NCBI GenBank assembly: GCA_964442455.1
Contig: CAYTZB010000001.1
Span: 21,910 to 85,909, forward strand
DNA length: 64,000 bases
Direction: 5' to 3'
Source of the DNA: an uncultured Gammaproteobacteria bacterium
GTDB taxonomy: Bacteria > Patescibacteriota > Microgenomatia > UBA8517 > JACQJR01
A model generated the notes under the pieces. It made no database searches. It was given only the letters and a program-made list of their open reading frames with translations, and had not been told where the DNA came from. The translations under genes were made by a program, and so were the position numbers. Every line of letters starts with the position of its first letter. The stretch's first letter is position 1. Below are positions 959 to 16,919 of this stretch, in pieces.

Positions 959-1727
959 TTATCTTACCCCGCTTCTTATAAAGGCTCCGGCGGCATGGGC
1001 TTTAATCCGTGCTAACGAGATACGAGCATTAGATAAAATAAATTTTGAATCGCCGGTTTTGGATGTAGGATGCGGCGATGGTTTAGTTGCCAAGGTTTTG
1101 CTGTCAAAAAGGAAAACAACGTTTGATTGGGGGATAGATATTTCTGAAAGAGAGGTACAAAAGGCAAAAAAGCTGAAGGTTTATAAAAATTGTAAAGTTG
1201 CCGACGTCTATTCATTGCCATTTGGAGATGAAACTTTCTCAACAGTTTTTTCTAATTCGGTAATTGAGCATATTCCCAATTTGGATAGAGCACTTTCTGA
1301 GATGTCCCGAGTTCTGAAGAGAAATGGACAACTAGTTATTACTGTTCCCTCACCCTATTTAGCTAAATATCTTGTTGGAACAAGAATGTTAGGTAACTGG
1401 TATGGTTTGTTTTTTAACAAACTCTTCAAGCACTACAATTTATATAATCATAAGCAATGGGCAAAAATTTTTAAGAAATACTCCTTAAAATTGGTTTTTT
1501 ATCACTACTATCATACGCCAGAAATGATTAGAGCTCATGAGTTGTTGTCCTATTTATCTCTTCCTGTTCACCTTGCAAAACCGTTTTTGGGGTACTGGCC
1601 TGTTTTCCCAAAAATGCGAAAAGTTTTTATTGTTCCTTGGTTAAGAAAAATACTTTATAGATTCTATCTTGATGATACAAAAATGGATAAAGGGGGATCT
1701 TTACTTCTTGTTGCTAAAAAATTCTAA
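936..1727 (+). CDS. Class I SAM-dependent methyltransferase (Methyltransf_11-like). Paralog of 24177..24965.
   Basis: 'VLDVGCGDG' motif I, then 'FSTVFSNSVIEHIPNL...VLKRNGQLVITVP'. The ORF-track start at 675 overlaps the GNAT gene; an ATG at 915 or 936 is more plausible. Confidence 0.65.
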   Translation: MRKKSPPDYLTPLLIKAPAAWALIRANEIRALDKINFESPVLDVGCGDGLVAKVLLSKRKTTFDWGIDISEREVQKAKKLKVYKNCKVADVYSLPFGDETFSTVFSNSVIEHIPNLDRALSEMSRVLKRNGQLVITVPSPYLAKYLVGTRMLGNWYGLFFNKLFKHYNLYNHKQWAKIFKKYSLKLVFYHYYHTPEMIRAHELLSYLSLPVHLAKPFLGYWPVFPKMRKVFIVPWLRKILYRFYLDDTKMDKGGSLLLVAKKF

Positions 1728-4339
1728 TGAAAGCTTTAAAAAAGTTTTTCAAAAATAACCTTTTCGTAATTTTTCTAATTTTTATCCTTACTTCTATCGC
1801 ATATGGGCAAACTCTTAAGATGTATTTTCTTATAGATGACAACGCATTAATTTATAAGCTTCAGCATATTAATGAGTACACAGGTTTTTGGGGAAAAGGG
1901 ATAATTGGAGAGGGTCCATATAGACACATTGTCGATCAATTTGTTCTCTTCTATCCCATTTTTGGCGTTAACACTGCTCCATACTTTATGGTAGGGGTAT
2001 TACTTTATTTTTTCGCAGGATTGGCATTATATATTTTTGTTAATTTTCTTACTAGAAATAAACTTATTGCTCTTGGTGCTTCTGCTATTTTTGCATCTGG
2101 GTATGTTGGTTCAGAAAGTATGTTTGGAATCGTAAATTCTTGGCAAACAACACGCGGAATTATTATGGCTCTTGTAACGTTTTTTCTATTTTATCATTAC
2201 ATAAAATCGAAAAATATAATTTTTTATTTACTTTCAGTAACTCTTTTCTTTTTCTCGCTTGACACAGTTTATATTCGCGCTCATGGATTAGTTTTCGCAA
2301 TTTTGTTTTTTGATATTCTGTTCTGGCCTGTTTTGCTCAAGGTGAGCTCCATAGTGCAATTTATTGTTAGGCAAACCCCTTTTTTGTTAATTCATTATTA
2401 TGTCTATTTTAGAGCCACCGCTTATGTTAAAAGTCTGGGAATCTTTGACTTTTTACACGATATTTTTGTTGATGGAAACTTCCTGATAGCTACAATACCA
2501 CTGCAAAATTTAGGGAATTTATTTATCCCAGATATGCTTACCTCTTATGTAAATAAAATAATCTCTGACTCTGTTGTTTTGCCAAATGAATTATCAATTG
2601 GATCAATTTTGGCAGGAATTTTTATTCTATTTTTATCCATTTACATTTTGTCAAGAAGTTACAAAAGTGAAAGATTTTTAAATAAAGTTTTAATATTTAG
2701 TCTCATTTTCTCTGTTGCAAATTTTATGGTTTTCTGGGCAAGAGAGACAAATCATACTCTTTGGACTACACATAGATATTTCCTTTATTCTTTTGTAGGG
2801 GTTTCTTTATTTTGGGCAACTGCTTTTTACCTAATATCAAAAAATTTAAGATTCAAAAATGCCCTGAAAGTTTTAACATTTACAGTTATTATCGTTTATT
2901 TATTTTTAGGCATAAATTATCAGAAAGAGTTTAACGAGCGCCGCAGTTTCCCCGCCCAAAAGTTTTTTTCAAGCTTTAAAAAATCGATGCCCAGTATTCC
3001 AAAAGAAGCAGTTATTTATTTTAATTTGATGAACGATAGGCGTATTCAAGGTGAATTTGGTAGCTTTTTTGGGGGAATGTTTTCAGAAGCAGGAAATCTT
3101 GCAATCCTTGGAGACGTTGATGATTACACAAGCGATTTTCTCGTCACATACGATATTAATGAAGTTAAAAGGTTTTTAGGCGAAGGCAAGACTAGTCTTG
3201 ATAAAGTTTTTACTTTTTACTACGGAGATGAAGGTTTAATTGATACCAGTCAAATTACGCGTGAGCTTTTGATAACCAGTAAGGAAATAACGTTAGATAC
3301 CCAACAGTTTTCTTCAAGTACATCCTTTAGAACTTCCGGTGGGGTTTTTACAACCAGCACACACTTTGAGGAATCAGGTGAATTTACAACAGGAGAAAAT
3401 CCCGTCGTGACAATTTCTGTTCCTGATAATACTCCTTCACTTGTTCCATCGGTTTTATCTTTTTCTATGAGTGTTAGTCCCAATATCACTCCATTACCAT
3501 ACCAAACAAAAGGTCAAAGTTTCGACATTGATAGCAAAGAGAAAAATAAAATTTTTTCTTATCTTTTATCACAAAATAATTTTCGCAAAACAGCAGTTGG
3601 TACTTCAGCCTCTTTTTGGAAAGAGCAAGAAGCTAAATTAGCGCTGGATGGGAGGCTTGAAACGGCATGGCGTGGACATAGGGGTTATTGGGATGACATT
3701 GATAGAAATATAACCCGCAACATTGAATATTTTCAGGTTGATTTAAGGCACATAGCAACTGTTGGACAAATAATGTGGGTTTCTGCCCAGCGCCCGCTTG
3801 TCCCGACCCATTATAAAATTTTAACGTCAACTGATGGTAAAGAGTGGCAGTTGGTGAAAGAGGTAACGGGCGGAAATGTGTTGCCCGAGGGAACAGTGAT
3901 CTTTGACTCTTTCAAACCAACACCCGCTCGATATTTGAAAATGGAGATACTCGCAACTTATGGCAATGACGGACCTGAAATAAAAGAGTTTGAAGTGCTT
4001 GAAAGCCGCTTTGCAGAATTAGACAGAAAAGTTGTTGAAAAAGTAAGGCAAGCTCCGTTTGCAGAGATAGAAACATTAAGCGATTTTAATAATGCTTGGG
4101 CATTCGTTCAACAAAATGCAAGTTTGCGGTTTTATTATCAGTCGAGCGCCGATGGCAAACAGGACGAGACAAGATATGTAGATATCCCTGTCGTTATTGA
4201 CGGTAAATTGCATCAGTACTCAATAGACCTTCCGGCAACAGGGATTAACTGGACACAATTTACAATTGGCGGCTTTAACTTTCCGGCAGAAATTAAAATT
4301 AGTTCACCAAGTATTATCTACAAAACTATACAGAAGTGA
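1727..4339 (+). CDS. Large polytopic membrane protein (putative GT-C fold glycosyltransferase) with Ser/Thr-rich linker and C-terminal F5/8 type C (discoidin) domain.
   Basis: About 12 N-terminal hydrophobic helices. C-terminus 'ETAWRGHRGYWDD...FQVDLRHIATVGQIMW...YKILTSTDGKEWQ...ARYLKMEILATYGNDGPEIKEFEV' matches discoidin/galactose-binding-like domains. Confidence 0.55.
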   Translation: MKALKKFFKNNLFVIFLIFILTSIAYGQTLKMYFLIDDNALIYKLQHINEYTGFWGKGIIGEGPYRHIVDQFVLFYPIFGVNTAPYFMVGVLLYFFAGLALYIFVNFLTRNKLIALGASAIFASGYVGSESMFGIVNSWQTTRGIIMALVTFFLFYHYIKSKNIIFYLLSVTLFFFSLDTVYIRAHGLVFAILFFDILFWPVLLKVSSIVQFIVRQTPFLLIHYYVYFRATAYVKSLGIFDFLHDIFVDGNFLIATIPLQNLGNLFIPDMLTSYVNKIISDSVVLPNELSIGSILAGIFILFLSIYILSRSYKSERFLNKVLIFSLIFSVANFMVFWARETNHTLWTTHRYFLYSFVGVSLFWATAFYLISKNLRFKNALKVLTFTVIIVYLFLGINYQKEFNERRSFPAQKFFSSFKKSMPSIPKEAVIYFNLMNDRRIQGEFGSFFGGMFSEAGNLAILGDVDDYTSDFLVTYDINEVKRFLGEGKTSLDKVFTFYYGDEGLIDTSQITRELLITSKEITLDTQQFSSSTSFRTSGGVFTTSTHFEESGEFTTGENPVVTISVPDNTPSLVPSVLSFSMSVSPNITPLPYQTKGQSFDIDSKEKNKIFSYLLSQNNFRKTAVGTSASFWKEQEAKLALDGRLETAWRGHRGYWDDIDRNITRNIEYFQVDLRHIATVGQIMWVSAQRPLVPTHYKILTSTDGKEWQLVKEVTGGNVLPEGTVIFDSFKPTPARYLKMEILATYGNDGPEIKEFEVLESRFAELDRKVVEKVRQAPFAEIETLSDFNNAWAFVQQNASLRFYYQSSADGKQDETRYVDIPVVIDGKLHQYSIDLPATGINWTQFTIGGFNFPAEIKISSPSIIYKTIQK

Positions 4340-6966
4340 AGAAACGTACTATCTCTTTAAGTTTGACAATCCTGGCTTTAATAATAGCCCTTAGCTTTGG
4401 TCAGGCAATCCAGTTTACTCTTTGGCAGGATGATAATGCTTTAATTTTTAAGCTTCAACATTTAGAAGAACAAGCTGGTGTCTTTGGGCCTGGACCAGCT
4501 GGACTTGGTGCGTATCGCTACGTTGTACTCCCATACATTCCAATTTATAAAGTTTTTGGAATGAACATACCTAATTTTTATTTGTATACACTTTTCTTTT
4601 ACTTTCTCGCCGCAGCATCGGTTTTTTTGTTAACGAAATATTTAACGAAAAATAATATTGTTGCTTTGTTGTCGTGCGCAATTTTTTCTGCCGGATTTAT
4701 CGGCTCTGAAGGGATACTTAGACTTTTTAACGGTGTTCAAACAAGCTACAGCGTTTTTTTCGTGAGTTCATTCTTCTTGTTACTTTACCGGTTTATTAAG
4801 ACAAAGCACGCTATTTATTATTTCTTAGGATTATTGTTTTACTTTATTGCTCTGGAAACAGCTTTTATTCGTACGCAATATTTAATTTTACCGACCGTAA
4901 TTTTTTTTATTTTGTTTCTGGATTGGGGGAAACGGCCCTTTATTTCTTTAGAAACAAACTTGTTTATTCTAAAAAATATATTTTTAGTTGTACCCTTTTT
5001 ATTTATTTATCGTTTTGTTTTTTTGCGTAGCTCCGATGCAAGGGCCGATTTGGTTAAGGATTATGTTATGGGCATACTAAATGGAAATTTAGACTACACT
5101 CATAGTTTTTTTGGGACATTGGGAAGTATTATTTTACCTGATCCTATTACAAACTTCTTGTTTGATGCTATTGGTAATCTCAGCTTAGATTACACAAATC
5201 GCTTGTTGATGTTGGAGCTTTTATTCTTGGGGATAAGCTTTATTATTATTAATTTTGTTTTTAAAAATATCCCCAAGATTACTCGTGTCCTAATCTTTTT
5301 TCCTTTGGTAATTTGGTTTGTCTTAGGAATGATTTACTTTCAAAACTCGGAGAAGATATTTGTCCATTCGGAAATTGTAGATACCCTTGGAGTTTTTGCG
5401 AATTTTGTTGGAGGACTGTTTATTATTATTTCAACCTCTATTTTGATAACAGCATTCAAGAAAACCGCGACCCGTAATGAACAAGTGGGAAAACTTTCTT
5501 TATTCCTTTTATCATGGCTTTTAGCAAATATACTGGCATATTCAATTTATCTACCGTTTTCTCCTCTTGAAAGTATAAATCGTTATCTTGTCCACTCCTT
5601 AGCAGCTTACGCAATATTTATCCCATTGTTTTTATATTATGCTTGGGGAAGAAGAGTTACTATTGTTCTCTCAAGTTTTATTGTTTTGACAAATATTTTT
5701 TGGTCTTTAGATTACCAACAAAGATTCATAGTTGAGAGGACGGTTCCTACACGTATTTTTTATCAAGATTTAAGGAAATTTATTCCAGAATTGTCAAAGG
5801 GTGCAGTTGTTTATTTTGATGTTGCAAATGATAAAGTTTCCGAGCAGCAATTTCGCGATTTTTTTTCAGTTGGCTCTATGCCCGACGAAACTGCAATAGC
5901 TATAAGGTATGGTATTGATAGATATGATTTCAAAATAACTAAAGATTTTAATGAATTCCTTTCCCTTATTCAAGATAAATCTTTAGATCTTACTTTTTCA
6001 TTTTTTTACGATTCCACTGGTTTAAAAAATACAACCAAAATAATGAGAGTGAATTTAGTTGGCAAAGAAGTCGAAATTGACAGTAAAAATTTAAGCAATT
6101 TATCTTTAGTGACACCAGGTATATTGGAATTTAGTGCTAAAGTCATTCCAAAGATTAGTATTAAACAAAACTGCCCAAATTTTCCCGGGGACAGAGTAAA
6201 TCTTTTTAACTACCTTTTGGCTCGTGATAATTTTTATAAAAATGTTAAGGTTCAAACAAGCTCCCAGGAGAAATATCAGGCAAATGATTTTTTGAAAGAT
6301 GGTAAGTTTAATACATTATGGAGAGGTAGTAGAGGATGGTGGCATGAGAATAAGAAAGAAATAGTGACAGTTGATTTAGGAAGTCCAAAAAAAATTAATC
6401 AATTAGTCTGGATTAATGGCTATGCAAATTCTACACCCACAAAATATAAGATAGAAGTATCATTAAATGGAGAGAACTGGGATGTAGTAAGGAGAGTAGA
6501 TTCTGGTGCCAGGAAGGAAAACACAGGCCTAGTTACAGATAATTTCGAAACTTTCAAAGCCCGTTACATTAGACTAATAATAGAGGAAACTTTTGACAAT
6601 GACGCTCCTGCAATTGGTGAAATTGAGGTTGTCGAGGAAGACTTTGAAGGTATTAATAAAGAGAAAATAGAGAAACTAAAAGAAATTGCTCTTTGTGCAA
6701 ATAATCTGGAGTCTTTAAATAGTGTTAATCAGTTCATAAATAAAATTGGCATAGAAGGAGTAGTTTCCTGGAAGACAGACAAGAGTAACGACAATGTTGT
6801 TAGATTAAGTCTCCAAGCAGATGGTCTTTATCATAGCTACAAAGTTTTTTTGCCAGCAGGGGGTACTAAACTAAACGATTTAGTAATTGAACCTTGGGTA
6901 GTACCAGTGGACATTTCTGTAATTGGTTTAAAACTTATCTATCCAAATAATCTGAAAACAGATTGA
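4336..6966 (+). CDS. Tandem paralog of 1727..4339: polytopic membrane protein (putative GT-C) with C-terminal discoidin domain.
   Basis: The N-terminal regions align ('DDNALIFKLQHLEE' versus 'DDNALIYKLQHINE'). C-terminal discoidin signature 'NTLWRGSRGWWHENKKEIVTVDLG...YKIEVSLNGENWD...ARYIRLIIEETFDNDAPAIGEIEV'. ATGA overlap with the upstream gene. Confidence 0.55.
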   Translation: MKKRTISLSLTILALIIALSFGQAIQFTLWQDDNALIFKLQHLEEQAGVFGPGPAGLGAYRYVVLPYIPIYKVFGMNIPNFYLYTLFFYFLAAASVFLLTKYLTKNNIVALLSCAIFSAGFIGSEGILRLFNGVQTSYSVFFVSSFFLLLYRFIKTKHAIYYFLGLLFYFIALETAFIRTQYLILPTVIFFILFLDWGKRPFISLETNLFILKNIFLVVPFLFIYRFVFLRSSDARADLVKDYVMGILNGNLDYTHSFFGTLGSIILPDPITNFLFDAIGNLSLDYTNRLLMLELLFLGISFIIINFVFKNIPKITRVLIFFPLVIWFVLGMIYFQNSEKIFVHSEIVDTLGVFANFVGGLFIIISTSILITAFKKTATRNEQVGKLSLFLLSWLLANILAYSIYLPFSPLESINRYLVHSLAAYAIFIPLFLYYAWGRRVTIVLSSFIVLTNIFWSLDYQQRFIVERTVPTRIFYQDLRKFIPELSKGAVVYFDVANDKVSEQQFRDFFSVGSMPDETAIAIRYGIDRYDFKITKDFNEFLSLIQDKSLDLTFSFFYDSTGLKNTTKIMRVNLVGKEVEIDSKNLSNLSLVTPGILEFSAKVIPKISIKQNCPNFPGDRVNLFNYLLARDNFYKNVKVQTSSQEKYQANDFLKDGKFNTLWRGSRGWWHENKKEIVTVDLGSPKKINQLVWINGYANSTPTKYKIEVSLNGENWDVVRRVDSGARKENTGLVTDNFETFKARYIRLIIEETFDNDAPAIGEIEVVEEDFEGINKEKIEKLKEIALCANNLESLNSVNQFINKIGIEGVVSWKTDKSNDNVVRLSLQADGLYHSYKVFLPAGGTKLNDLVIEPWVVPVDISVIGLKLIYPNNLKTD

Positions 6967-6997
6967 CTAGTGTAGAATGTCTTGTTAAACTCTTAAC

Positions 6998-7987
6998 GTG
7001 ACTCATGATATAGCAATTGTAGGTTACGGATACTGGGGGCCGAACCTTTTAAGGACCTTTATAAATATTCCAGATTGTACTGTACGTTATTGTTGCGATA
7101 TTGATGAAAAAAATCTGCAAGAAGTCAAGAGAAGATATCCTCATGTTCTGACCACTACTGATTTTAAAGAGATAATTTCTGATAGTAATATTGACGGTGT
7201 AGTTTTGGCAACACCAACGAATTCGCATTTTTTGTTAGCACAGCAGGCGATAAATGCCGGCAAGGATGTTTTGGTTGAAAAGCCAATGTCCACTACTTCC
7301 CAAGAAGCTCGAAAACTTGTTAGCTTGGCCCAAAAAACAAAAAGAATCTTGATGGTTGACTATGTCCTTTTGTTCAGCCCTGCAGTATTAAAAATTAAAG
7401 AATTGATAGACAAGGGAGAAATTGGAGAGATTCTGTACATCGATTCTACACGGACAAATTTAGGTCTTTTTCAAAAAGACAGTAATGTAATTTTTGATTT
7501 AGCATCCCATGAATTTTCAATAGTTCAGTTTATTTTAGGAACAAAACCAACAAAAGTAAGTGCAACTGGTAAATCACATATAAATGATCAGGTAGATGTT
7601 GCTTATATTACAGCAGAGTATCAGAAAAATATTATTGCGCATGTTCATATTAGTTGGCTTTCTCCGGTTAAAGTTAGGAGAATGCTTATTGTCGGAAGCA
7701 AAAAAATGATAGTTTATGATGATAACGAATCATCGGAAAAGATTAAGGTTTATGATAAAGGTATAGTTAGAGAGAAATCTCACAACGAGAATGGGCAAAT
7801 TGAGATAGGTTATAGATTTGGTGATGTCTGGTTGCCCCATATAGAAACAATTGATCCATTGACCTTTATGGCTCAGAGTTTTATTGATGCGGTTTCAAGT
7901 CGCAAAGTAACAAGAAGCGACGGAAAATTCGGCGCGGAAATTGTTGAAATTTTAGAAAGAGCAACTAAATTGCTTAACGCAAAGTAG
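6998..7987 (+). CDS. Gfo/Idh/MocA-family NAD(P)-dependent sugar oxidoreductase (WbpB/WlbA-like).
   Basis: N-terminal Rossmann motif '[12 protein letters not shown]', then 'EKPM' and the C-terminal GFO_IDH_MocA_C region. GTG start. Confidence 0.7.
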
Positions 7988-7994
7988 AACAAAA

Positions 7995-8471
7995 ATGATA
8001 ACAAAGGACGTTAAACTCGGGAAAAACGTAAAGATTTATCATCCAGAACTTGTTAATTTATATGGTTGCAAAATTGGTGCGGGTTGTATTATTGGTTCTT
8101 TTGTGGAAATTGGAAGAAATGTAAGTATAGGCCGCCGAGTTAAAATACAAGCTTTTGTATATATACCTGAAGGAGTAACCATTGAGGATGAAGTTTTTAT
8201 TAGTCCCCATGTATGCTTTACAAACGATAAATATCCAAGATCAACAAATCCTGATGGATCTTTGAAAAATGCCCAAGAGTGGGAAGTTATCCCAACTAGA
8301 GTTTGTAAGGGGGCATCGATTGGGGCTAATAGCACAATTATTTGTGGGGTTACAGTTGGAGAGGGAGCAATTGTCGGTGCAGGAAGTGTAGTGACTCACG
8401 ATGTTTTGCCATGGACCATTGTTGCTGGAAACCCCGCCCGCCTGATCCGTAAAATCAAGATCTCAAAATGA
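7995..8471 (+). CDS. Hexapeptide-repeat (left-handed beta-helix) sugar N-acetyltransferase (WbpD/WlbB-like).
   Basis: Repeated [LIV]-G-x-x-x-x hexapeptides ('[25 protein letters not shown]', '[28 protein letters not shown]'); 158 aa. Confidence 0.7.
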
Positions 8472-9571
8472 AAATTCCGCTTGTTGACCTTGTAAGGCAG
8501 TATAAAAATTTAAAGGTCGAAATTGATAGTGTAGTTAAAAAAACATTCTCTAATGGTGATTTTATTCTGGGAGAAAATGTTACCGAGTTTGAAAAGGAGT
8601 TTGCACGCTTTTGTGGAGTTAATTATTGTGTTGGTGTTGCTTCGGGTACAGACGCCTTGCTCTTGTCGCTCCGTGCTTTAGGTATAGGAGCAGGGGACGA
8701 AGTTATTGCTCCCTCTTTTACTTTCATTGCCACAGTCCTGCCAACTATTTATCTTGGAGCAAAACCCGTGCTTGTTGATATTAACCCCGATACCTACCAG
8801 ATAGACGTAAGAAAAATAGAGCAAGTAATTACCAAAATGACAAAGGTGATAATTCCTGTCCACTTATTTGGCATGCCGGCTCCAATGTTGGAAATAAAAA
8901 AAATTGCCAAGAAATATAGACTGTATATTGTTGAAGATGCGTGCCAAGCACATGGAGCCTCTATTAACGGTAAAAAATGCGGTTCATTTGGGGATTTAGC
9001 AGCTTTTTCTTTTTATCCCAGCAAGGCTCTAGGAGCTTCGGGAGATGCCGGTGCTATTGTTACAAATAGTAAAAAGCTTGGAAATAACATTCGAGCGATG
9101 CGTAATGTAGGACAATTTAAAAAGTATAAACATGACATATTGGGTTATAACTCGAGACTTGATACATTGCAAGCCGGAGTTCTTTTGGTAAAGCTTAAGA
9201 AACTAGAAGAATGGAACGCCAAGAGAAAGAGATTATTCCAACTTTATAATAAACTTCTCTCGGGCTTACCAATTATTTTGCCGCCTACAACTGAGGATGG
9301 GTTTTCGCCAAATTATCTTATTTATACAATAAGAGTTAAAAAGAGAGATAAACTTTTAGATTTTCTGGCAAAATCTGGTATTAGCTGTGTAGTTTATTAC
9401 CCAATTCCTATTCATTTACAAAAAGCACTAGCACATTTGGGTTACAAAAAAGGTGATTTTCCAAATGCAGAAAGAGCGGCTCGTGAAGTTTTGTCGCTGC
9501 CTTTATACCCAGAACTCCAAGAAATAGAAATTAGATACGTTTGTAGTCGGATAAAGGAGTTCTTTAAATGA
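8468..9571 (+). CDS. DegT/DnrJ/EryC1/StrS-family PLP-dependent sugar aminotransferase (WbpE/WlbC-like).
   Basis: '[14 protein letters not shown]', '[22 protein letters not shown]' (PLP-lysine region) and a C-terminal 'SLPLYPEL' region; 367 aa. Confidence 0.8.
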
Positions 9572-10701
9572 AAATTCCACTTCATAGACCCTATTTTGAC
9601 AGTCTGGAAGAAAGAGCAATAGTTCAAGTTTTGCGCTCTGGTTGGGTAACACAAGGGCCGAAGGTTGAAGAATTTGAAGACGCTGTTTGCAAATACACGG
9701 GTTCTAAATATGCGGTTGCCACAACATCCTGCACAACCGCTCTTTTTATGAGTCTTCATATGTTGGGCATTGGTCGGGGAGATGAAGTAATTGTTCCTTC
9801 TTTAACTTTTATCGCAACTGCAAATGTTGTTGTTCATACCGGCGCAAAGCCCGTTTTTGTTGATATTGACCCGGAGACCTACAATATAAATCCTGGGAAG
9901 ATAAATGAGAAAATAACGAAAAGAACCCGTGCTATCATTCCTGTTGACCAAGTTGGACTTCCTTCTGATTTGGATAAGATTTACCAGTTAGCCAGAAAGC
10001 ATAAATTATTTGTAGTTGAGGATGCCGCTTGTGCTCTTGGAAGTAAATATCACGGAAAAAGAGTTGGTGGTTTTGGCCAGATTTCCTGTGTTAGCTTTCA
10101 TCCTAGAAAAACAATAACTACAGGGGAAGGCGGGATGATTTTAACCAATAACAAAGATTGGGCCGATAAATTGCGCATTTTACGTCATCAAGGGATGTCT
10201 ATTTCGGATGTTACGCGCCACAAAGCAAAGAGCATTATTTTTGAGAAATATCCGGTTGTTGGATATAATTTTCGTATGTCTGATTTGCAAGCCGCAGTTG
10301 GAGTGGAACAAATGAAAAAATTACCTGAAATATTAGAGAGAAGAGCAAATCTTGCTAAGCGATACACAAAAAACTTCTTGGAGACTAAGTTTATAATTCC
10401 CCCATATGTTCCTCCTGGCTATACACATAATTGGCAGTCTTATGTTATTAGAATTCGTAAAAATCGAAAAATCGAGAGAGGCGATCTTATGCAGAAATTA
10501 CTAGATGTAGGTATTGCAACTCGCATTGGCGTTATGGCAGCACACCTTGAAAAACCTTACAGAATGATGTATCCAAAGCTTGTTCTACCTGAAACAGAAA
10601 TAGCGGCAAGAGAAACTATAACAATTCCTCTTTATTTTCAAATGACAGAAAAAGAGCAAGACTATGTGATTGAAAAAATTTTAGGCTTTACGGAGGGTTG
10701 A
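9568..10701 (+). CDS. Second DegT-family sugar aminotransferase (tandem paralog).
   Basis: 'GDEVIVPSLTFIATANVV', 'SFHPRKTITTGEGGMILTN' and 'TIPLYFQMTEKEQDYVIEKI'. ATGA overlap with the upstream gene. Confidence 0.8.
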   Translation: MKIPLHRPYFDSLEERAIVQVLRSGWVTQGPKVEEFEDAVCKYTGSKYAVATTSCTTALFMSLHMLGIGRGDEVIVPSLTFIATANVVVHTGAKPVFVDIDPETYNINPGKINEKITKRTRAIIPVDQVGLPSDLDKIYQLARKHKLFVVEDAACALGSKYHGKRVGGFGQISCVSFHPRKTITTGEGGMILTNNKDWADKLRILRHQGMSISDVTRHKAKSIIFEKYPVVGYNFRMSDLQAAVGVEQMKKLPEILERRANLAKRYTKNFLETKFIIPPYVPPGYTHNWQSYVIRIRKNRKIERGDLMQKLLDVGIATRIGVMAAHLEKPYRMMYPKLVLPETEIAARETITIPLYFQMTEKEQDYVIEKILGFTEG

Positions 10702-11840
10702 TGGAAGAAAAATTTAATCATGGCTTTACTGACAATCCCTACAATGAGCACGCTTGGATTTTAGGAAACCCTGAAATTGGCGAGCGGGTTTGGATTGGCG
10801 CATTTTGTTTAATTGACGCCGCCAATGCCCCATTAAAGATTGGCAAAGGTACAGATATTTCAAGCGGTGCTCAAATCTTAACTCACTCGACAGTTAAAAG
10901 AGCTATATCAGAAAGACGTTATGGGGAAGTAGATAGTGCTGCAGTAGAAATTGGTGACTTTTGTTTTATCGGCACTAATGCTGTTGTTTTAATGGGGACA
11001 AAAATAGGCCACCATAGTGTTGTCGCAGCTGGGTCAGTTATTCCTCAATTTATGAAAGTTCCTCCATACTCAATAGTAGCTGGAGTTCCCGGCAAGATTA
11101 TCGGTTCAAGTAAAAAATTTTTGAAAGGTGTAGAGCCAGAATCTTTGTCAGTTGTTATTCCTGCATACAATGAGGCCCGAACGATAGAAGATGTAGTGAG
11201 AAATGCAATAGAGGTTCTAAAAAAAATAAGAATTGATTATGAGATAGTTTTGGTTAACGATGGTTCAACTGATCAAACAGGGAAAATCGTTGACGGTCTT
11301 GCAAGGAAAAATAAATTTATTCGCATTGTACATCATAAACAAAACAAAGGATTTACGGGAGCAATGAAAAGCGCCTTTTCCAGCGCTAAAAAACACCTGA
11401 TATTTTTAGCTCCCGCTGATGGTCAATTTGATTTTTCTGAACTCCCCAAGTTCTTAAGCGCAGTAAAAGGGTATGATGCGGCAACGGCGTACATTACTAA
11501 AAATAAAGAATCAACTTATAAAAGAGTAACTAGAGGTATCTTTCACCTGCCATTTCAATTTTTATGCCGCTATCTTTTAGGGATTAGTCTTAAAGAATTT
11601 TCTTCTGTGTCTTTGTGGAGAAGGATAGTTTTTCAATCAATTGAAATAAGTTCTGAGGACAGAAGTGCGATGTTTTTGCCAGAACTGATAAGTAAGGCAC
11701 TGAAGAAGAGATATAAATTTACGGAAGTTCCAATCAGATGGTATAGACGCAAAGGTGGTAAGGCAAAAGGCACAAGTGTAGTAGTTGCCATAAAGACTTT
11801 TTTTGCAATGGTTAAGTTATGGTTTAAATTAAGGGATTAA
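10698..11840 (+). CDS. Fusion protein: N-terminal hexapeptide-repeat acyltransferase domain joined to a C-terminal GT2 (DPM1/GtrB-like polyprenyl-phosphate sugar synthase) domain.
   Basis: Residues ~20-150 carry hexapeptide repeats ('IGERVWIGAFCLIDAANAPLKIGKGTDISSGAQIL', 'IGDFCFIGTNAVVLMGTKIGHHSVVAAGSVI'). Residues ~150-380 read 'LSVVIPAYNEARTIEDVV...YEIVLVNDGSTDQTGKIV...FTGAMKSAF...DGQFDF', a GT2 DXD-type fold. Confidence 0.6.
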   Translation: MMEEKFNHGFTDNPYNEHAWILGNPEIGERVWIGAFCLIDAANAPLKIGKGTDISSGAQILTHSTVKRAISERRYGEVDSAAVEIGDFCFIGTNAVVLMGTKIGHHSVVAAGSVIPQFMKVPPYSIVAGVPGKIIGSSKKFLKGVEPESLSVVIPAYNEARTIEDVVRNAIEVLKKIRIDYEIVLVNDGSTDQTGKIVDGLARKNKFIRIVHHKQNKGFTGAMKSAFSSAKKHLIFLAPADGQFDFSELPKFLSAVKGYDAATAYITKNKESTYKRVTRGIFHLPFQFLCRYLLGISLKEFSSVSLWRRIVFQSIEISSEDRSAMFLPELISKALKKRYKFTEVPIRWYRRKGGKAKGTSVVVAIKTFFAMVKLWFKLRD

Positions 11841-11866
11841 CTTTTGTGGAGGTAGCTCCTTAATTA

Positions 11867-13372
11867 ATGAATTCTATAAAAATAGATCTTTTTCTCATAA
11901 GTCTTGTTCTATTGCTAACTTTTTTTACCTGGAGACATATTCTCTCTTTGCAATTCACAGGGGAAAGTTGGGGTTTTATTGGCACAATTCCACCTAAGGG
12001 AAATTTGTTTGAAATAGTTTATCAGGAAGTTGCATCACTGGACGAGTTTACTATTGACAGGATACTCTCTGGAATTCTAATCCCTAAATTCGGTGACCAA
12101 ATTCATTTATATATGTGGTTTCAGCTTGTTTATATGCTTTTTATTGATTTATTATTATATTTCATAGTTAAGCAAATGACAGGTAGTAAATTGGCAGGAT
12201 TTCTCACTGCCTTTCTTTTTGGCAGTAGCTTTATAGCTAATTTTGAGACCTATTCAGGAGGAGGATATTTGTATTTTGCTGGAAGGGCAACTCTAGCTGT
12301 ACCAGCACTCATAGCTGTATATTTTTTATACTTATATCTTACGAAAAAATTTAAGCTTTATTTTTACTTCATTTCCCTTACTCTTTATGCATTTACACTA
12401 ATGATGAGTTTTTTTGGCACTTATTTTGTACCAATACTTATTACTTATCCAATTGTTTATCTTCTTTTTGGCTTAAGGGAGATAAGGCAAATTTTCTGGA
12501 AATTAATATTGTTACCCATCCCTTACATAATAATTACCCTGTATATAATTAGAGGGTCGCTTGCTTTTACTAACGAGTCTATCTTTGATTTTGTATTCGA
12601 AAAATTTTCTTATACCCTTACTGGAATTCTTCAACAACTAACTGTTCTTACTTTTCCGATGGGCGAATTGTTTTTAATCAATGATAAATTTTCTATTGAA
12701 TATTTTGGAATTTTGGTTATAACGGTATTAATCTATTGCTATGCTTTTTTCGCCAACTCAAAAATAAACACCCAGTGGAAAGTTCTTCAGATGACGGCAT
12801 TGCTAAGTGCCATAGGAATGCTTTTCTTTAATGTATATTTACAAGCTGCAGAAACACTAAATACATTTGGATCAACCAGGTACTTCTATTTTCCTTCTAT
12901 AATGGTGGCAATTTTTTTTGGTATTTTTTTAACTGGTATTCTTACCAAAGGAAGGAAATTATTGAATTTGCATCTAATAATTATTATTCTTGTTTGGTTT
13001 AGCTATAATAATGTTCATATTCAAAGACGATTGAAAACAGAAGAATGGGTACATAATGCAAACAAGCAAACCCTGGAAATATTGCGTTCTTGGGCGCCGG
13101 AAACGAAGAAAAATCCCTCTTATCTCTATTTACCTGCCACATTGGGTGGATACGGAGGTCAATTTGTCATTCAATTTTTCAGTCATCCGCAGGGAAAAGT
13201 AGATGTTGAAGGCCTTGAGTCTCTTGATCTAGATAAAGTGTCAAAATTGGGATTTTCTCCTAATAATCTTTTTGTAATGCATTTTGATCCTTTGTCAAGA
13301 AATGTTTATGATATAACAGAACAAACGAGAGCCATGTTTGCCCAAGAAAAAAGAAGAGATAAGAAATTTTGA
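11867..13372 (+). CDS. Polytopic integral membrane protein (putative GT-C-like glycosyltransferase).
   Basis: 501 aa, ten or more hydrophobic helices, GGAGG ribosome-binding site upstream. No soluble domain recognised. Confidence 0.4.
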   Translation: MNSIKIDLFLISLVLLLTFFTWRHILSLQFTGESWGFIGTIPPKGNLFEIVYQEVASLDEFTIDRILSGILIPKFGDQIHLYMWFQLVYMLFIDLLLYFIVKQMTGSKLAGFLTAFLFGSSFIANFETYSGGGYLYFAGRATLAVPALIAVYFLYLYLTKKFKLYFYFISLTLYAFTLMMSFFGTYFVPILITYPIVYLLFGLREIRQIFWKLILLPIPYIIITLYIIRGSLAFTNESIFDFVFEKFSYTLTGILQQLTVLTFPMGELFLINDKFSIEYFGILVITVLIYCYAFFANSKINTQWKVLQMTALLSAIGMLFFNVYLQAAETLNTFGSTRYFYFPSIMVAIFFGIFLTGILTKGRKLLNLHLIIIILVWFSYNNVHIQRRLKTEEWVHNANKQTLEILRSWAPETKKNPSYLYLPATLGGYGGQFVIQFFSHPQGKVDVEGLESLDLDKVSKLGFSPNNLFVMHFDPLSRNVYDITEQTRAMFAQEKRRDKKF

Positions 13373-13418
13373 TTTCTGTTGCTGGAAAGTTTAGTGCTAT
13401 ATTAAGCATGTACTATTA

Positions 13419-15245
13419 ATGAAGCATTTAGGAAAATTTTTTAATAAGTATAGTTACAAGTTAGTTTGGTTGGTGGTAATTTCCTCAATTTTATTTAATT
13501 TAGGTGCTACTTCATACGAGCTTTCAACGAAGGCAAACTTAATAGATCACTATTTTTATGGCATATTTCTCAGTCCTTTTGACAGTATTCGCTATGGACA
13601 TTTTATTGCCAGAAAACTTTTTCTTGTTGTAATCGCTTTATCAGTTTTTATCTACTGGCTAAAAAAACAAAAAAATGTTCTGCAAAATGCAAGAAAAAAC
13701 TTAAAATATATACTCGCTATTGGTCTTACTCTTTTCTTTTCGAGGATATTAACTTATGGCTTTTGGTTCTATAACGATGACCTGCGTTTTTTTCATTGGC
13801 ATCTTTTTTGCCCATCTCAGCCAATTTGTAACATACAAGGAATGTGGGGGCCAGTTGGTTCACATCCAATAGCTATACTAAATCTGGTTTTACCGTGGTT
13901 TGGAACAAACTATACCCTGTATAATAGCCTTGGCCTGTTTTTTTACTTTTTAGCAGGAGTAGCAATTTTTGCACTAATTAGCAAACTGCAAAAAAGCAAA
14001 TTTATTTCCCTTATTGCCGCAATATTTTTTCTGACAACCCCAACCTACTTTCAGGGGAGACTCCTTATAGGAGAAGTTATAAACAGTCCATTTATCGTAC
14101 TTTTAGTAGTGCTTTCCTTTTATATGCTTTTTCAGAAATTTATTCCAGGTGCGCTAATTTTTGCAGCAGCAGCTCTGGAATATGGAGTAGCTAAATCATA
14201 CTTTATTGCTTTGCCACTTACTCTTTTTGCATTATTTTTTGCTAACTCAAATCCTACAGGTAAAAAATTCATTGATCAAAAGAAAAGTATAATTTTTTTT
14301 GTTGTTGCAATTTGTTTAATTTCATTTGTTTATATGCCTATTTTTGATCGAGCGCCCGGGGGACATACCCAATTGAGTGAAATATTTGCCCTAGACCAAT
14401 TGTTTGTTTTTGGAGATGTACTTCTGGCAGTAACTTTGCCTTATGGCTTTTCGTATCCTCTTGTTCATTTATTAAGTTTGACTTTGAACAATTGGAAATA
14501 TATTACTATTGCGCTTGGATTTATAATTGTTGCGGTTTTTGCTGTTGCGAGTCTTATTTCTATACTTTCAAAAAAAATCTTTAGCGCAAAGATGTTAATA
14601 ATAGGTCTATCTATTATTCTTCCTACTGCAGCGGTAGCCTCTTTTATGGGAGTAAGAGTTGAACATAATGTAGCTAGACTTGTTGAATATCACAAAAACA
14701 GTTTAGGACCGCTTGGCGCAACAGGATATGGTATTTTTCCTGCCTTAGGTCTAGTTTTTGTATTAATGGGCTTGGCACATTTAGTTAGCAAAAGAACATT
14801 TAAAGTATCAGCTATAATTTTAATTTTTATAAACATAGTTACGTCTTTTTCGTTCGATTATAGATGGCTTATGTCTCCTTATTCTTACCCTCAGCGAAAA
14901 TATGACGAGCAGCTCCAAAAAATTCTTCCCAGGGACGGTATTAACAGATATATATTTGTTCCCGGAAGTCAGCGCCCATTATATGAAGGCGTTAGAACTT
15001 TCGGTTCTGTCTTTCAGGGAGACCAGGGTGTATATACCTTTATGGGTAAAGAAGATTTTGTCCAAGCTATCAAAGAGGATAAAGTAAGGCCAGACCATAT
15101 TTATTTTTTGATAACAAACGGGAAACCCAAATATGATATTTATGATTATTCGGAAAAGATAAGGTCAACTCCCTATAACCGACTTATTCCTCTTATCGAG
15201 TCATTAACAATAGAATTGACACCTAAAAATGTAGAATTTTGGTAG
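13419..15245 (+). CDS. Polytopic integral membrane protein (putative GT-C-like glycosyltransferase) with a C-terminal soluble region.
   Basis: 608 aa, 12 or more hydrophobic helices, then a ~120-aa hydrophilic C-terminus. Confidence 0.4.
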   Translation: MKHLGKFFNKYSYKLVWLVVISSILFNLGATSYELSTKANLIDHYFYGIFLSPFDSIRYGHFIARKLFLVVIALSVFIYWLKKQKNVLQNARKNLKYILAIGLTLFFSRILTYGFWFYNDDLRFFHWHLFCPSQPICNIQGMWGPVGSHPIAILNLVLPWFGTNYTLYNSLGLFFYFLAGVAIFALISKLQKSKFISLIAAIFFLTTPTYFQGRLLIGEVINSPFIVLLVVLSFYMLFQKFIPGALIFAAAALEYGVAKSYFIALPLTLFALFFANSNPTGKKFIDQKKSIIFFVVAICLISFVYMPIFDRAPGGHTQLSEIFALDQLFVFGDVLLAVTLPYGFSYPLVHLLSLTLNNWKYITIALGFIIVAVFAVASLISILSKKIFSAKMLIIGLSIILPTAAVASFMGVRVEHNVARLVEYHKNSLGPLGATGYGIFPALGLVFVLMGLAHLVSKRTFKVSAIILIFINIVTSFSFDYRWLMSPYSYPQRKYDEQLQKILPRDGINRYIFVPGSQRPLYEGVRTFGSVFQGDQGVYTFMGKEDFVQAIKEDKVRPDHIYFLITNGKPKYDIYDYSEKIRSTPYNRLIPLIESLTIELTPKNVEFW

Positions 15246-15260
15246 AATTTTGATTGAATT

Positions 15261-16214
15261 ATGACTAGTAACTATCTAGTAACTGGGGGAGCGGGTTTCA
15301 TCGGCAGTTTCGTAGTGGAGGAGCTTCTTGCCCGTGGTAAAAATGTGACGGTGTTGGACAACTTCAGTTCTGGTTCAAAAGAGAACCTTACCCAGGTCCA
15401 GAAGATTGTCCAGGGCCGTCTTCGAGTCCTGAAGGGCGACATCCGTAAACTGTCGGATCTTGAGAAGGTTTGTCGTGGTATCTCGGTAGTCTATCACATG
15501 GCTGTTCAACCGCTGACATTGGGACTGGAGGACCCCCTTATAATGAACGAGGTGAATAGCACTGGTACTCTCAATACTCTTCATGCTGCCCACCTTGCGG
15601 GTATTCAACGTTTTAACTATATTTCCTCTTCAGAGGTTTATGGAACAGCGCAGTATGTACCTATGGACGAGAATCATCCGCGCGTACCCCTAACCGTGTA
15701 CGCGGCCTCAAAACTTGCTGGCGAAGCGTATGTGCAAGGGTATTACAACACCTACGGTCTAACTTACACTATAATTCGCCCTTTCAACTCATATGGCCCA
15801 CGTCACCGGGACGATGGCTATTGCGCAGTATTATTTCGCTTCTTGCAATGTGTAATCAAAAACGAACCACCCCAAATTTACGGGGATGGTAAGCAGACGC
15901 GCGATATGTCTTATGTTGAGGATACCGCGCGAGGCATCGTACTCGCGGGAGAGTCTCCAAGAGTGATAAATGATGTGGTGAATATCGGTACTGGCCGGGA
16001 GGTGCAAGTTAACGAAGTGGCACAAGCAGTGCTCGAAATACTTGGCTCGAAACTCAAGCCCAGAAAGGTGGCACCCCGGCCAGGGGACGTGCGTAGACAC
16101 CTGGCTGGGATAGCAAAGGCTCAGTATTTACTCGGGTATAAGCCACGCTTCACATTCGCTGAGGGCGTACTTAAGACTATTGAATGGTATTTACAGAAAC
16201 ACTCCAAGAGGTGA
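15261..16214 (+). CDS. NAD-dependent epimerase/dehydratase (extended SDR; UDP-sugar 4-epimerase or 4,6-dehydratase-like). Lies in a GC-rich island.
   Basis: 'VTGGAGFIGS' Rossmann motif and catalytic 'YAASK' (YxxxK); 317 aa. GC content and codon usage (ctg, ggc, cgt) differ markedly from the neighbouring genes. Confidence 0.75.
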   Translation: MTSNYLVTGGAGFIGSFVVEELLARGKNVTVLDNFSSGSKENLTQVQKIVQGRLRVLKGDIRKLSDLEKVCRGISVVYHMAVQPLTLGLEDPLIMNEVNSTGTLNTLHAAHLAGIQRFNYISSSEVYGTAQYVPMDENHPRVPLTVYAASKLAGEAYVQGYYNTYGLTYTIIRPFNSYGPRHRDDGYCAVLFRFLQCVIKNEPPQIYGDGKQTRDMSYVEDTARGIVLAGESPRVINDVVNIGTGREVQVNEVAQAVLEILGSKLKPRKVAPRPGDVRRHLAGIAKAQYLLGYKPRFTFAEGVLKTIEWYLQKHSKR

Positions 16215-16263
16215 CTTCCAAAAGTTCTGGTAGAAATATCCGGTTTACATTAATGATTAAACT

Positions 16264-16770
16264 ATGTTAGGATTAAAACTAATGGTTAAGGCAATTGCTT
16301 TTTTTCTTTTATTTTTTTACATAATTTTTAGTTTACCAGGTGTTGTGTTAGCACAGGAATCACAAACTGAAACTAAAACTAAAGTCGAGGTAGACCACGT
16401 TGCGAATGTCATTGAAAAATTTAGAGAGAAAGTTGTTTTATTCTTTAAATTTTCAAAAAATACCAAAGTAGATTATCAACAATACTTGGTTGAAAAAAGA
16501 CTTGCCGAACTAAAATGGGTTGTGGATAGTAAAGAATGGCAACCGGTTGAGGAAACCTCATCTCGCTACTCAACTTATTTAGGAAATTTTACAGATTTTG
16601 TGATTAAAAACAAACTAACAAGTAAAAAAGAAGAAATTTTAAAAATGTACGAGGAACATCAAAAAATTCTCGATACGTTGCAAAGAAATTTCGAATTTGA
16701 ATCAGGGTTTTGGTTACTTTTACAGCATGATATTAATACTGTAAAAATTTTCTCCGAACGGGTTAAATAA
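16264..16770 (+). CDS. Hypothetical secreted or membrane-anchored protein.
   Basis: N-terminal signal/TM helix 'AIAFFLLFFYIIFSLPGVVLA' followed by a charged, helical 140-aa region. Confidence 0.4.
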   Translation: MLGLKLMVKAIAFFLLFFYIIFSLPGVVLAQESQTETKTKVEVDHVANVIEKFREKVVLFFKFSKNTKVDYQQYLVEKRLAELKWVVDSKEWQPVEETSSRYSTYLGNFTDFVIKNKLTSKKEEILKMYEEHQKILDTLQRNFEFESGFWLLLQHDINTVKIFSERVK

Positions 16771-16783
16771 TTAATTCTTCAGG

Positions 16784-16885
16784 GTGATATACTCATCTTA
16801 CTTGAATTTGCAACTTTTAAGGTATTCGTATATACCCGTTTTCCACAATTTCTAAATGCAAATTAGAGTTAAGCGGGTATATAAT
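16784..16885 (+). promoter_or_regulatory. Conserved ~100-nt intergenic element, copy 1. It has a 57-nt core, a stem-loop (arms 16829-16838 and 16874-16883) and a TATAAT box at 16880-16885. It sits upstream of the wzx-like gene.
   Basis: The core 'gtgatatactcatcttacttgaatttgcaacttttaaggtattcgtatatacccgtt' is 54/57 identical to the reverse complement of 21767-21823. A 10-bp perfect inverted repeat tatatacccg/cgggtatata flanks a 35-nt loop. Confidence 0.55.
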
Positions 16886-16919
16886 GGTCAATAAGTAAAA
16901 TAGTTAGTGTTCTAGTAAG

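Follow-up and report, generated by a model that had tools for sequence, protein, structure and literature searches.

In the Arn pathway of Enterobacteria (PmrF; ArnA, ArnB, ArnC, and ArnT), a short-chain dehydrogenase/reductase (SDR) generates a 4-keto sugar, C4 is aminated, the amine is N-acylated, a family 2 glycosyltransferase (GT2) transfers the product to polyprenyl phosphate, and a GT-C enzyme uses the lipid-linked sugar outside. Here N-acylation both drives the unfavorable ArnB transamination and labels the substrate for ArnC, and ArnA fuses two of the steps (decarboxylase and formyltransferase) in one protein. A second described fusion, Neisseria PglB, is a bifunctional acetyltransferase/phosphoglycosyltransferase, of which a PglB2 variant has its acylating domain swapped for an ATP-grasp domain (PMC11130364). 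Here, we describe a five-gene cassette in a 64,000-nucleotide stretch of contig CAYTZB010000001.1 (assembly GCA_964442455.1) from an uncultured bacterium of the Microgenomates type within the Candidate Phyla Radiation, hereafter the window, by which we mean the whole stretch analyzed and to whose first letter all coordinates refer. The last gene of the cassette encodes a left-handed β-helix (LbH; Pfam Hexapep) acyltransferase fused to a GT2. From the sequences, we consider it reasonably probable that the cassette specifies an Arn-like route, with the same order of chemistry, to an N-acetylated amino sugar on polyprenyl monophosphate, in which a single polypeptide would carry out both the final soluble tailoring reaction and the loading onto lipid. 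The cassette belongs to neither the Arn nor the PglB system: its acylase is of another type and has another fusion partner, and the linkage to the carrier and the anchoring in the membrane differ as well. An initial annotation of this DNA had proposed an ArnB/ArnC-like route with N-acyl transfer built into the GT2 polypeptide, and this proposal held against homology, fold, and comparative gene order. Our argument is built on what was observed directly: which genes the locus contains, that their domains are intact, which folds they resemble, that the fusion is conserved, and how relatives order and fuse these genes.

All five open reading frames (ORFs) of the cassette are present on the + strand where they were first annotated, co-directional and overlapping or near-abutting. 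An SDR gene that lies downstream, outside the span first annotated, completes the set:

6998..7987, +: Gfo/Idh/MocA NAD-dependent oxidoreductase (Gfo), a predicted nucleoside diphosphate (NDP)-N-acetylhexosamine (HexNAc) 3-dehydrogenase (Pfam GFO_IDH_MocA, N-terminal domain E 9e-25 and C-terminal domain E 1e-17)
7995..8471, +: small LbH N-acetyltransferase, 158 amino acids (aa), WlbB/QdtC/FdtD class, a predicted 3-amino N-acetyltransferase (Hexapep E 1e-22)
8468..9571, +: first DegT aminotransferase (DegT-1), C3-type (Pfam DegT_DnrJ_EryC1 E 2e-120)
9568..10701, +: second DegT aminotransferase (DegT-2), C4-type, ArnB/perosamine-synthase-like (Pfam DegT_DnrJ_EryC1 E 3e-121)
10698..11840, +: LbH::GT2 fusion, whole ORF as mechanically listed (Pfam Hexapep and Glycos_transf_2)
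10701..11126, +: fusion, N-terminal LbH domain, aa 1-142, a predicted acetyl-CoA-dependent C4-amine N-acetyltransferase (Hexapep aa 83-116, E 4e-11)
11127..11840, +: fusion, C-terminal GT2 domain, aa 143-379 and stop, a predicted polyprenyl-phosphate glycosyltransferase lacking transmembrane (TM) segments (Glycos_transf_2 aa 151-294, E 3e-24)
15261..16214, +: extended SDR, a predicted NDP-HexNAc 4,6-dehydratase (Epimerase/GDP_Man_Dehyd domains)

The genes from 1727 to 16770 are tightly packed on one strand, with intergenic gaps of -11 to +49 nt, and in a promoter and terminator scan of 4000-17200 the counts were no better than chance. The ATGA overlaps first reported between cassette genes are genuine at 8468 and 9568. 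The junction between DegT-2 and the fusion (GGTTGATGG) also overlaps, but by one base, as TGATG and not as ATGA, and the fusion likely starts at ATG 10701 rather than at the mechanical TTG 10698, with a GGAGG Shine-Dalgarno sequence 5 nt upstream. A database protein, P0001, is the 379-aa ATG-start form of the fusion (100% identity).

Set beside Arn, the cassette departs in several respects. Its N-acylase is an LbH acetyltransferase, not a formyltransferase, and is fused to the GT2, not to the SDR; its SDR resembles a 4,6-dehydratase, not a UDP-glucuronic acid (UDP-GlcA) decarboxylase; its GT2 lacks TM helices; and all equivalog scores of the cassette proteins fall far below their cut-offs. When nearly all window ORFs of 100 aa or longer were scanned with Pfam, neither a Formyl_trans nor a polysaccharide-deacetylase (ArnD-like) domain appeared. 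The likeness to PglB concerns the fusion itself, since PglB likewise joins a polyprenyl-loading enzyme to an LbH N-acetyltransferase, which completes a 4-amino sugar nucleotide (di-N-acetylbacillosamine, diNAcBac), with the two domains in the reverse order. However, the PglB phosphoglycosyltransferase makes an undecaprenyl-diphosphate (Und-PP) sugar, whereas the GT2 of the fusion would make a polyprenyl-phosphate sugar; and the PglB acetyltransferase is of the PglD/NeuD type, whereas the LbH half of the fusion scores 43 bits on that NeuD/PglB/VioB model (cut-off 160.8).

The fusion is real, conserved, and mechanistically sensible. A domain scan of the single ORF returned both Hexapep and Glycos_transf_2, each above its Pfam gathering score, bearing out the first annotation of an acyltransferase and a GT2 in one frame. 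Unfused LbH genes followed by GT2 genes do occur in two relatives (L014 and L022), as would suit a sequencing or assembly frameshift that joined two adjacent genes, but the chance of such an artefact is next to nil. The same 379-aa product was called on contigs from two other sequencing runs, and 114 of the 120 best homolog clusters are full-length with both Pfam domains (53-76% identity). In a 50-sequence alignment, both halves contain invariant residues and the linker is conserved, and the AlphaFold2 model of the fusion (pLDDT 92.2, pTM 0.83) is confident across the junction. The independent assemblies and the >110 full-length homologs effectively refute a frameshift-joined pair. In a library clustered at 50% identity, 1 of the best 150 representatives listed matches the fusion over its full length, so the architecture looks like one tight family; the named fusion relatives are Microgenomates or Woesebacteria (Candidate Phyla Radiation (CPR)/Patescibacteria). 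A literature search found no description of a Hexapep and Glycos_transf_2 fusion.

Gene order in the relatives places the fusion at a defined step. The fusion-bearing loci L003-L005, L008-L012, and L015 carry Gfo, the small LbH, DegT-1, (SDR), DegT-2, and the fusion, in that order, and in the window and all fused loci DegT-2 stands immediately upstream of the fusion or has only a formyltransferase gene in between, as in L004 and L012 (one Microgenomates genome; L004:9046-9999 and L012:9001-9978), where an ArnA-N-domain-like formyltransferase lies in tandem with the fusion. Orthologs of the GT2 half also occur alone (48-70% identity), and the gene between DegT-2 and the GT2 then varies, being an N-acylase each time, with a DegT-2 ortholog always immediately upstream of this N-acylase/GT2 slot. 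The slot holds (i) an ArnA-N-domain-like formyltransferase in L006/L013, L007, and L016, as a further likeness to Arn; (ii) in L014, an acetyltransferase of the PglD/NeuD family, whose 188 bits exceed the model cut-off of 160.8; or (iii) in the Opitutae genome L022, a free 150-aa LbH of the Pcryo_0619 type (54% identity to the fusion LbH), followed by a 313-aa full-length ArnC/PgfS-like GT2. L017 has the same genes, but there the GT2 stands away from the block with the formyltransferase. A single slot directly ahead of the lipid-loading GT2 is filled by three N-acylases that are unrelated, or only distantly related, to one another, and the fusion joins two genes that are neighbors elsewhere. 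The exchange of formyltransferase, PglD-type, and Pcryo_0619-type acylases parallels the acyl-domain swap of PglB2.

Four of the related loci (L009, L010, L014, and L015; 52-67% identity) come from metagenome-assembled genomes (MAGs) titled "uncultured Gammaproteobacteria bacterium" and carry the Microgenomates-type cassette; these titles are probably taxonomic mislabels of CPR bins. In L005, an EamA/DMT-family transporter gene (L005:11158-12027) directly follows the fusion and may encode an ArnE/F-like flippase that moves the lipid-linked sugar. No EamA/DMT-type gene was noted beside the fusion in the window.

By its nearest solved relative and the invariant residues it retains, the LbH half resembles an active N-acetyltransferase. 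Its closest solved protein is the Pcryo_0619 N-acetyltransferase (8vr6/8vr7/8vrm; E 2.6e-18, 33% identity), with which it superposes at a root-mean-square deviation of 1.4 Å over 127 columns (Foldseek/model comparison). Residues W31, D39, and H62 do not vary among the fusions, 20 free homologs, and Pcryo_0619; the LbH-half invariants of the 50-sequence alignment include W31, H62, R67, E71, and H105-S106; and this half is conserved at least as strongly as the GT2 half. Maltose/galactoside O-acetyltransferase and γ-carbonic-anhydrase LbH classes also match it significantly (E 1e-12 to 1e-6), some free LbH homologs have no sugar context (L025), and L004 and L012 are already equipped with a formyltransferase for the amine. 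These points would fit an enzyme that O-acetylates the sugar or its lipid-linked form, or a silent trimerization scaffold or γ-carbonic-anhydrase-like module that oligomerizes the GT2. We regard either role as very improbable, given that the best match by both sequence and structure is an N-acetyltransferase, that His62 is invariant in so strongly conserved a domain, and that two other kinds of N-acylase fill the same slot in relatives. A γ-carbonic-anhydrase was rejected because the fusion has no histidine opposite the two histidines of 1v3w (tigHnamvHg), which are presumably the metal ligands of that enzyme; H62 is offset from the first of them.

Pcryo_0619, which we take to act in a triacetamido-sugar pathway, differs from the LbH half in being free-standing and part of a Gram-negative O-antigen pathway. 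The PDB series to which it belongs, namely an SDR (8vr2), a DegT aminotransferase (8vr3/8vr5), and the acetyltransferase (8vr6), mirrors the trio found around free LbH homologs, whereas the SDR and DegT-2 of the window each have nearer solved relatives than 8vr2 and 8vr3. The Psychrobacter cryohalolentis K5 O-antigen contains 2,3,4-triacetamido-2,3,4-trideoxy-L-arabinose (PMC8040287). Free LbH homologs (47-61% identity) adjoin an SDR and DegT-2-like pair at ∼25 of 31 loci, and these ∼25 loci come from four phyla (∼22 of them from Actinomycetes). Woykebacteria and Opitutae have six-gene cassettes (Gfo, small LbH, DegT-1, SDR, DegT-2, and free LbH), and Vampirovibrio has a similar free-LbH cassette without DegT-1.

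The GT2 half, on the evidence of fold, sequence, and family fusions, looks like a polyprenyl-phosphate glycosyltransferase. Its Foldseek ranks 1-15 are all ArnC, GtrB, or dolichol-phosphate mannose synthase (DPMS), from E 3e-14 for ArnC, the best structural match, to 1.5e-11; these alignments span 231-249 columns and reach beyond the GT-A core, and the PDB sequence matches are again ArnC, GtrB, and DPMS. Invariant features of this half in the 50-sequence alignment comprise the PAYNE, DDGSxD, and PADG motifs, D187, D191, and D240, and R307, E328, R350, and K356. The GtrB/ArnC-like assignment of the initial annotation stood in fold and sequence, but the TM helices of GtrB and ArnC are absent. 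The fusion ends in a hydrophobic, basic helix (aa 360-378) and is presumably attached to the membrane peripherally; the helix was not strongly amphipathic in a hydrophobic-moment check, so the attachment is presumed rather than read from the helix itself.

Short, TM-less GT2s that make polyprenyl-phosphate sugars for GT-C enzymes are known as PpgS, haloarchaeal dolichyl-phosphate (Dol-P)-hexose transferase, and DPM1-type enzymes. The GT2 half is near PpgS-like TM-less enzymes in size (213-226 positions in the PpgS and haloarchaeal DPM-type models) and matches both the PpgS and the haloarchaeal Dol-P-hexose models, but at scores far under the cut-offs of 370-375. The NCBIfam equivalog scores are 60 bits for ArnC (cut-off 529), 37 for PpgS (370), and 43 for DPhHxTase (375), all below cut-off. 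We know of no such TM-less enzyme with an N-terminal acetyltransferase domain.

Fusions within the GT2 family point in the same direction. P0226 (923 aa) is a GT2::GtrA_DPMS_TM::PMT_2/PMT protein, P0233 (639 aa) joins DegT to GT2, and ∼18 of the best 150 GT2-family representatives have an N-terminal GT2 and a long C-terminal extension (590-1055 aa). In L016 (L016:9983-12271; Levyibacteriota MAG JACPGQ010000030.1), a GT2 ortholog (48% identity) is fused to a ∼500-aa polytopic membrane domain homologous to the 876-aa membrane protein encoded upstream of the cassette in the window (hhalign probability 99.2%, E 1e-19), and genes for an SDR, DegT-2, and a formyltransferase precede it. An ordinary soluble GT2 that adds sugar to a glycan, a teichoic-acid-like polymer, or a protein would explain the absence of TM helices and the low ArnC, PpgS, and DPM-type scores, and two soluble GT2s (RmlT and 6p61) are also among the fold matches. 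We nevertheless find such an enzyme improbable, because the 15 best fold matches are all polyprenyl-phosphate glycosyltransferases aligned over ∼240 columns, past the GT-A core, because family members are fused to GtrA/DPMS-TM and PMT_2 or to membrane domains of the 876-aa type, because the unfused counterpart in Opitutae is full-length and ArnC/PgfS-like, and because TM-less polyprenyl-phosphate glycosyltransferases exist.

A further family fusion, P0258 (494 aa), joins a methyltransferase to GT2. The window also encodes, at 21001-21708 (-), a second small TM-less GT2 of 235 aa, which scores best against AglJ, PgfS, ArnC, and PpgS models and is probably, by these model matches, another polyprenyl-phosphate sugar synthase for a different sugar. 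GT2 genes of this kind ("GT2b") accompany the cassette in L004, L006, L013, and L014.

The enzymes preceding the fusion fit a route through C4. The best solved relative of DegT-2 is ArnB (1mdo, E 9e-82), followed by perosamine synthase; on NCBIfam models DegT-2 scores 342 bits for PseC and 325 for ArnB, both below cut-off. The initial annotation listed this second DegT aminotransferase as an addition to a three-gene set. It is present and ArnB-like, but it is not an extra: the SDR, the LbH acetyltransferase, and this C4 aminotransferase form a conserved trio. The SDR at 15261-16214 is placed in the pathway by its homologs, which are embedded in the cassettes of relatives: they lie between both DegT genes in L004, L005, L006, L009, and L011-L015 and next to DegT-2 in Actinomycetes. 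On NCBIfam models the SDR scores 206 bits for the LegB 4,6-dehydratase and 176 for dTDP-glucose 4,6-dehydratase, and 38-66 for decarboxylases (ArnA 38, PRK11908 66); its motif is SSSEVYG, with the Glu, and cassette SDRs as a group score best against 4,6-dehydratase models and have the Ser-Glu motif. An SDR of the UDP-GlcA decarboxylase type, as in a true Arn or a triacetamido-arabinose route, is disfavored by the family scores and by the absence of a 6-dehydrogenase from the window. A small DUF5667 protein is encoded just after the SDR (window 16264-16770), and DUF5667 genes are also found near the cassette in L004 and L005.

The first three genes form what appears to be a 3-amino module. The best NCBIfam match of Gfo is the archaeal UDP-N-acetylglucosamine (UDP-GlcNAc) 3-dehydrogenase (174 bits, cut-off 450), followed by inositol dehydrogenase (113). 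Gfo has no close solved relative in PDB searches, and WlbA and WbpB structures are absent both from its PDB matches at E<=1e-10 and from the best 60 of a 12-sequence profile. A WlbA/WbpB identity is thus unsupported by single-sequence and by profile searches. Gfo orthologs (52-76% identity) form the first gene of the cassette in relatives and are directly followed by small LbH orthologs in L003-L005, L008-L012, L015, L018, L021, and L022. The small LbH matches an N-acetyltransferase (7s43, E 3e-26), WlbB (3mqg, E 3.5e-26, aa 4-151), WxcM-like 4mzu, and QdtC (3fs8), matches by which it appears homologous to the WlbB/WbpD-type 3-N-acetyltransferase class. The best solved relatives of DegT-1 are the C3 aminotransferases 7b0d, QdtB (E 7e-106), DesV-type 2oga, and then WbpE (E 2e-83). 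The Pfam scans of the window also found no UDPG_MGDP_dh (UDP-GlcNAc 6-dehydrogenase) and no Epimerase_2 (2-epimerase), which makes a uronic-acid product unlikely. The first annotation had likened these genes to wlbA-wlbB-wlbC and wbpB-wbpD-wbpE, and the parallel is a partial one. The predicted three-step chemistry (3-oxidation, 3-transamination, and 3-N-acetylation), which the cassette has in common with WbpB/WbpE/WbpD (WlbA/WlbC/WlbB) and with the archaeal UDP-GlcNAc 3-dehydrogenase route, stands, as does the WlbB-type match of the small LbH; DegT-1 is C3-type and matches WbpE, but less well than 7b0d, QdtB, and 2oga. The oxidoreductase is nearest the archaeal model and not WlbA/WbpB-like. 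With a non-WlbA-type Gfo and without the 6-dehydrogenase and 2-epimerase, the likeness to wlbABC is therefore one of logic, not of membership.

In the Arn-like route that we favor, the SDR would produce a 4-keto-6-deoxy sugar from an NDP-HexNAc, for which UDP-GlcNAc and its 3-acetamido derivative are the likeliest candidates, and the ArnB-like DegT-2 would transaminate C4. The LbH domain of the fusion, of the Pcryo_0619 type and with its invariant His62, would then N-acetylate the 4-amino group with acetyl-CoA and so pull the unfavorable transamination forward, as formylation does in the Arn pathway, and the GT2 domain would move the sugar from the nucleotide to polyprenyl phosphate. Substrate channeling between the two halves is plausible, if putative. 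Once the lipid-linked sugar has been flipped, a member of the 876-aa family, polytopic, GT-C-like, and equipped with a CBM32 domain, may pass the sugar to a cell-surface acceptor. Gfo, the small LbH, and DegT-1 would add a 3-acetamido group by 3-oxidation, 3-transamination, and 3-N-acetylation (WbpB/WbpE/WbpD logic with a dehydrogenase not of the WlbA type); should this trio act on the same sugar, a 2,3,4-triacetamido-6-deoxyhexose would result.

Several observations weigh against this route, in part or in whole. Six Myxococcales/deltaproteobacterial loci with free LbH homologs of 56-61% identity have no recognizable sugar genes nearby, so the LbH family is not exclusively sugar-linked. These loci are L019, L020, L025, L028, L029, and L033 (proteins of ∼134-228 aa by ORF calling); in L025, the one examined, the LbH gene lies amid genes for TetR, an RND-type efflux system, and a methyltransferase. 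The activity of Pcryo_0619 is taken from its PDB title, [quoted passage not shown] All SDR model scores are below the curated cut-offs, so that a decarboxylase or an epimerase may stand in place of the predicted dehydratase, and the L004 SDR has no Glu at the catalytic position (SSASVYG) and scores best as GalE. No TM segment in the fusion reaches threshold (maximum 19-residue Kyte-Doolittle mean 1.52). The GT-C fold of the 876-aa protein, the candidate user of the product, is putative. The formyltransferase and fusion of L004 and L012 amount to one N-acylase beyond the simple scheme and, together with the GalE-like SDR, hint that the sugar there differs and may bear mixed formyl and acetyl groups. 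Lastly, L007 has Gfo but neither DegT-1 nor the small LbH in its block, and L006/L013 have no small LbH; with such incomplete 3-amino modules, the 3-amino and 4-amino modules are separable and may serve different sugars.

This last point bears on whether one sugar is made or two. The Gfo trio could supply an NDP-2,3-diacetamido sugar to another glycosyltransferase, while the SDR, DegT-2, and the fusion make a lipid-loaded 2,4-diacetamido-2,4,6-trideoxyhexose of the bacillosamine type; the fusion would then work just as described above, and no tri-N-acetylated sugar would arise. Besides L007, such a division of labor would suit (i) L016, which has only an SDR, DegT-2, formyltransferase, and GT2; (ii) most Actinomycetes, in which just the SDR, DegT-2, and LbH trio stands side by side; (iii) the GT2 ortholog, which is 48-70% identical with or without a 3-amino module; and (iv) the many other GT2, GT4, and GT-C genes of the window that could use a second sugar. 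Yet the SDR gene is interleaved between DegT-1 and DegT-2 in most cassettes, the gene set recurs little changed in four distant lineages, Microgenomates, Woykebacteria, Opitutae, and Vampirovibrio (in the last without DegT-1), and only one lipid-loading GT2 is embedded in the cassette. We therefore consider two separate sugars possible but unlikely, and continue with the Arn-like route to a single lipid-linked sugar.

In its fullest form, that route would give Microgenomates (CPR) bacteria a 2,3,4-tri-N-acetylated 6-deoxyhexose on polyprenyl monophosphate, handed directly from LbH to GT2 at the membrane and installed by an unclassified, CBM32-bearing, GT-C-like enzyme, with an interchangeable N-acylase slot that diversifies the surface chemistry of these episymbionts; we put this complete picture forward as a tentative and rather doubtful one. 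To our knowledge, no such sugar on polyprenyl monophosphate has been described. CPR/Patescibacteria are ultra-small, live attached to hosts, and devote large islands to glycosylation, and their cell-surface glycans are, as far as we know, almost unstudied. The fusion offers a testable handle, because one protein that should be expressible in soluble form is expected to convert a 4-amino nucleotide sugar, acetyl-CoA, and polyprenyl phosphate to a lipid-linked sugar. The cassette and its relatives would keep the Arn rule that the amine is acylated before lipid loading, while the acylating enzyme is freely exchanged, and the LbH::GT2, DegT::GT2, GT2::GtrA::PMT_2, and GT2::876-aa-type fusions link TM-less, ArnC-like GT2s to amino-sugar tailoring and to unannotated membrane transferases. 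The main value of the locus would lie in opening a way into CPR surface glycobiology and into an unannotated membrane-transferase family; were our interpretation wrong, a correctly annotated, ordinary polysaccharide gene cluster would still be left.

Polytopic membrane proteins are encoded on either side of the cassette, as follows:

1727..4339, +: 870-aa paralog of the next entry, membrane protein with F5/8 type C domain (F5_F8_type_C E 4e-13; 26% identity between the two proteins, E 1e-92)
4336..6966, +: 876-aa polytopic membrane protein ending in an F5/8 type C (CBM32) domain, a candidate GT-C-like transferase using a lipid-linked sugar
11867..13372, +: 501-aa polytopic membrane protein, immediately downstream of the fusion (∼10 hydrophobic segments)
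13419..15245, +: 608-aa polytopic membrane protein, whose ortholog directly follows the fusion in a relative

The gene at 1727..4339 overlaps the next by 4 nt. In the 876-aa family, a W-Q-D-D motif that hardly varies follows the first TM segment; the AlphaFold2 model is confident (pLDDT 88.9), and the membrane part is covered by no Pfam family. The 501-aa protein (11867..13372) has no Pfam match even at E<=10 and shows weak similarity only to a 507-aa protein of L011. The 608-aa protein (13419..15245), which likewise has no Pfam match, is 64% identical to the product of a 596-aa gene directly downstream of the L003 fusion and 53% identical to that of an L008 neighbor, and is weakly similar to the 876-aa protein. 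In all, three paralogous membrane proteins with a C-terminal F5/8 type C (CBM32) domain are encoded in the window, at 4336-6966, 1727-4339, and 31401-33479.

The whole 64 kb window forms a glycosylation island whose genes lie mainly on the + strand. Encoded in it are at least 13 large polytopic membrane proteins, of which five have PMT/PMT_2 matches and several have no Pfam match (e.g., 33463-36546, 1027 aa, and 39005-41632, 875 aa), together with at least 9 class-I S-adenosylmethionine (SAM) methyltransferases and numerous GT2 and GT4 enzymes. The window also has genes for two Wzx-like flippases (16920-18197 and 41634-42905), along with a Wzy_C/O-antigen-ligase-like gene (54199-55605). The G+C fraction is ∼0.32-0.36 in the first 38 kb and 0.37-0.44 in ∼38000-64000, a step that suggests two differently composed gene blocks within the island.

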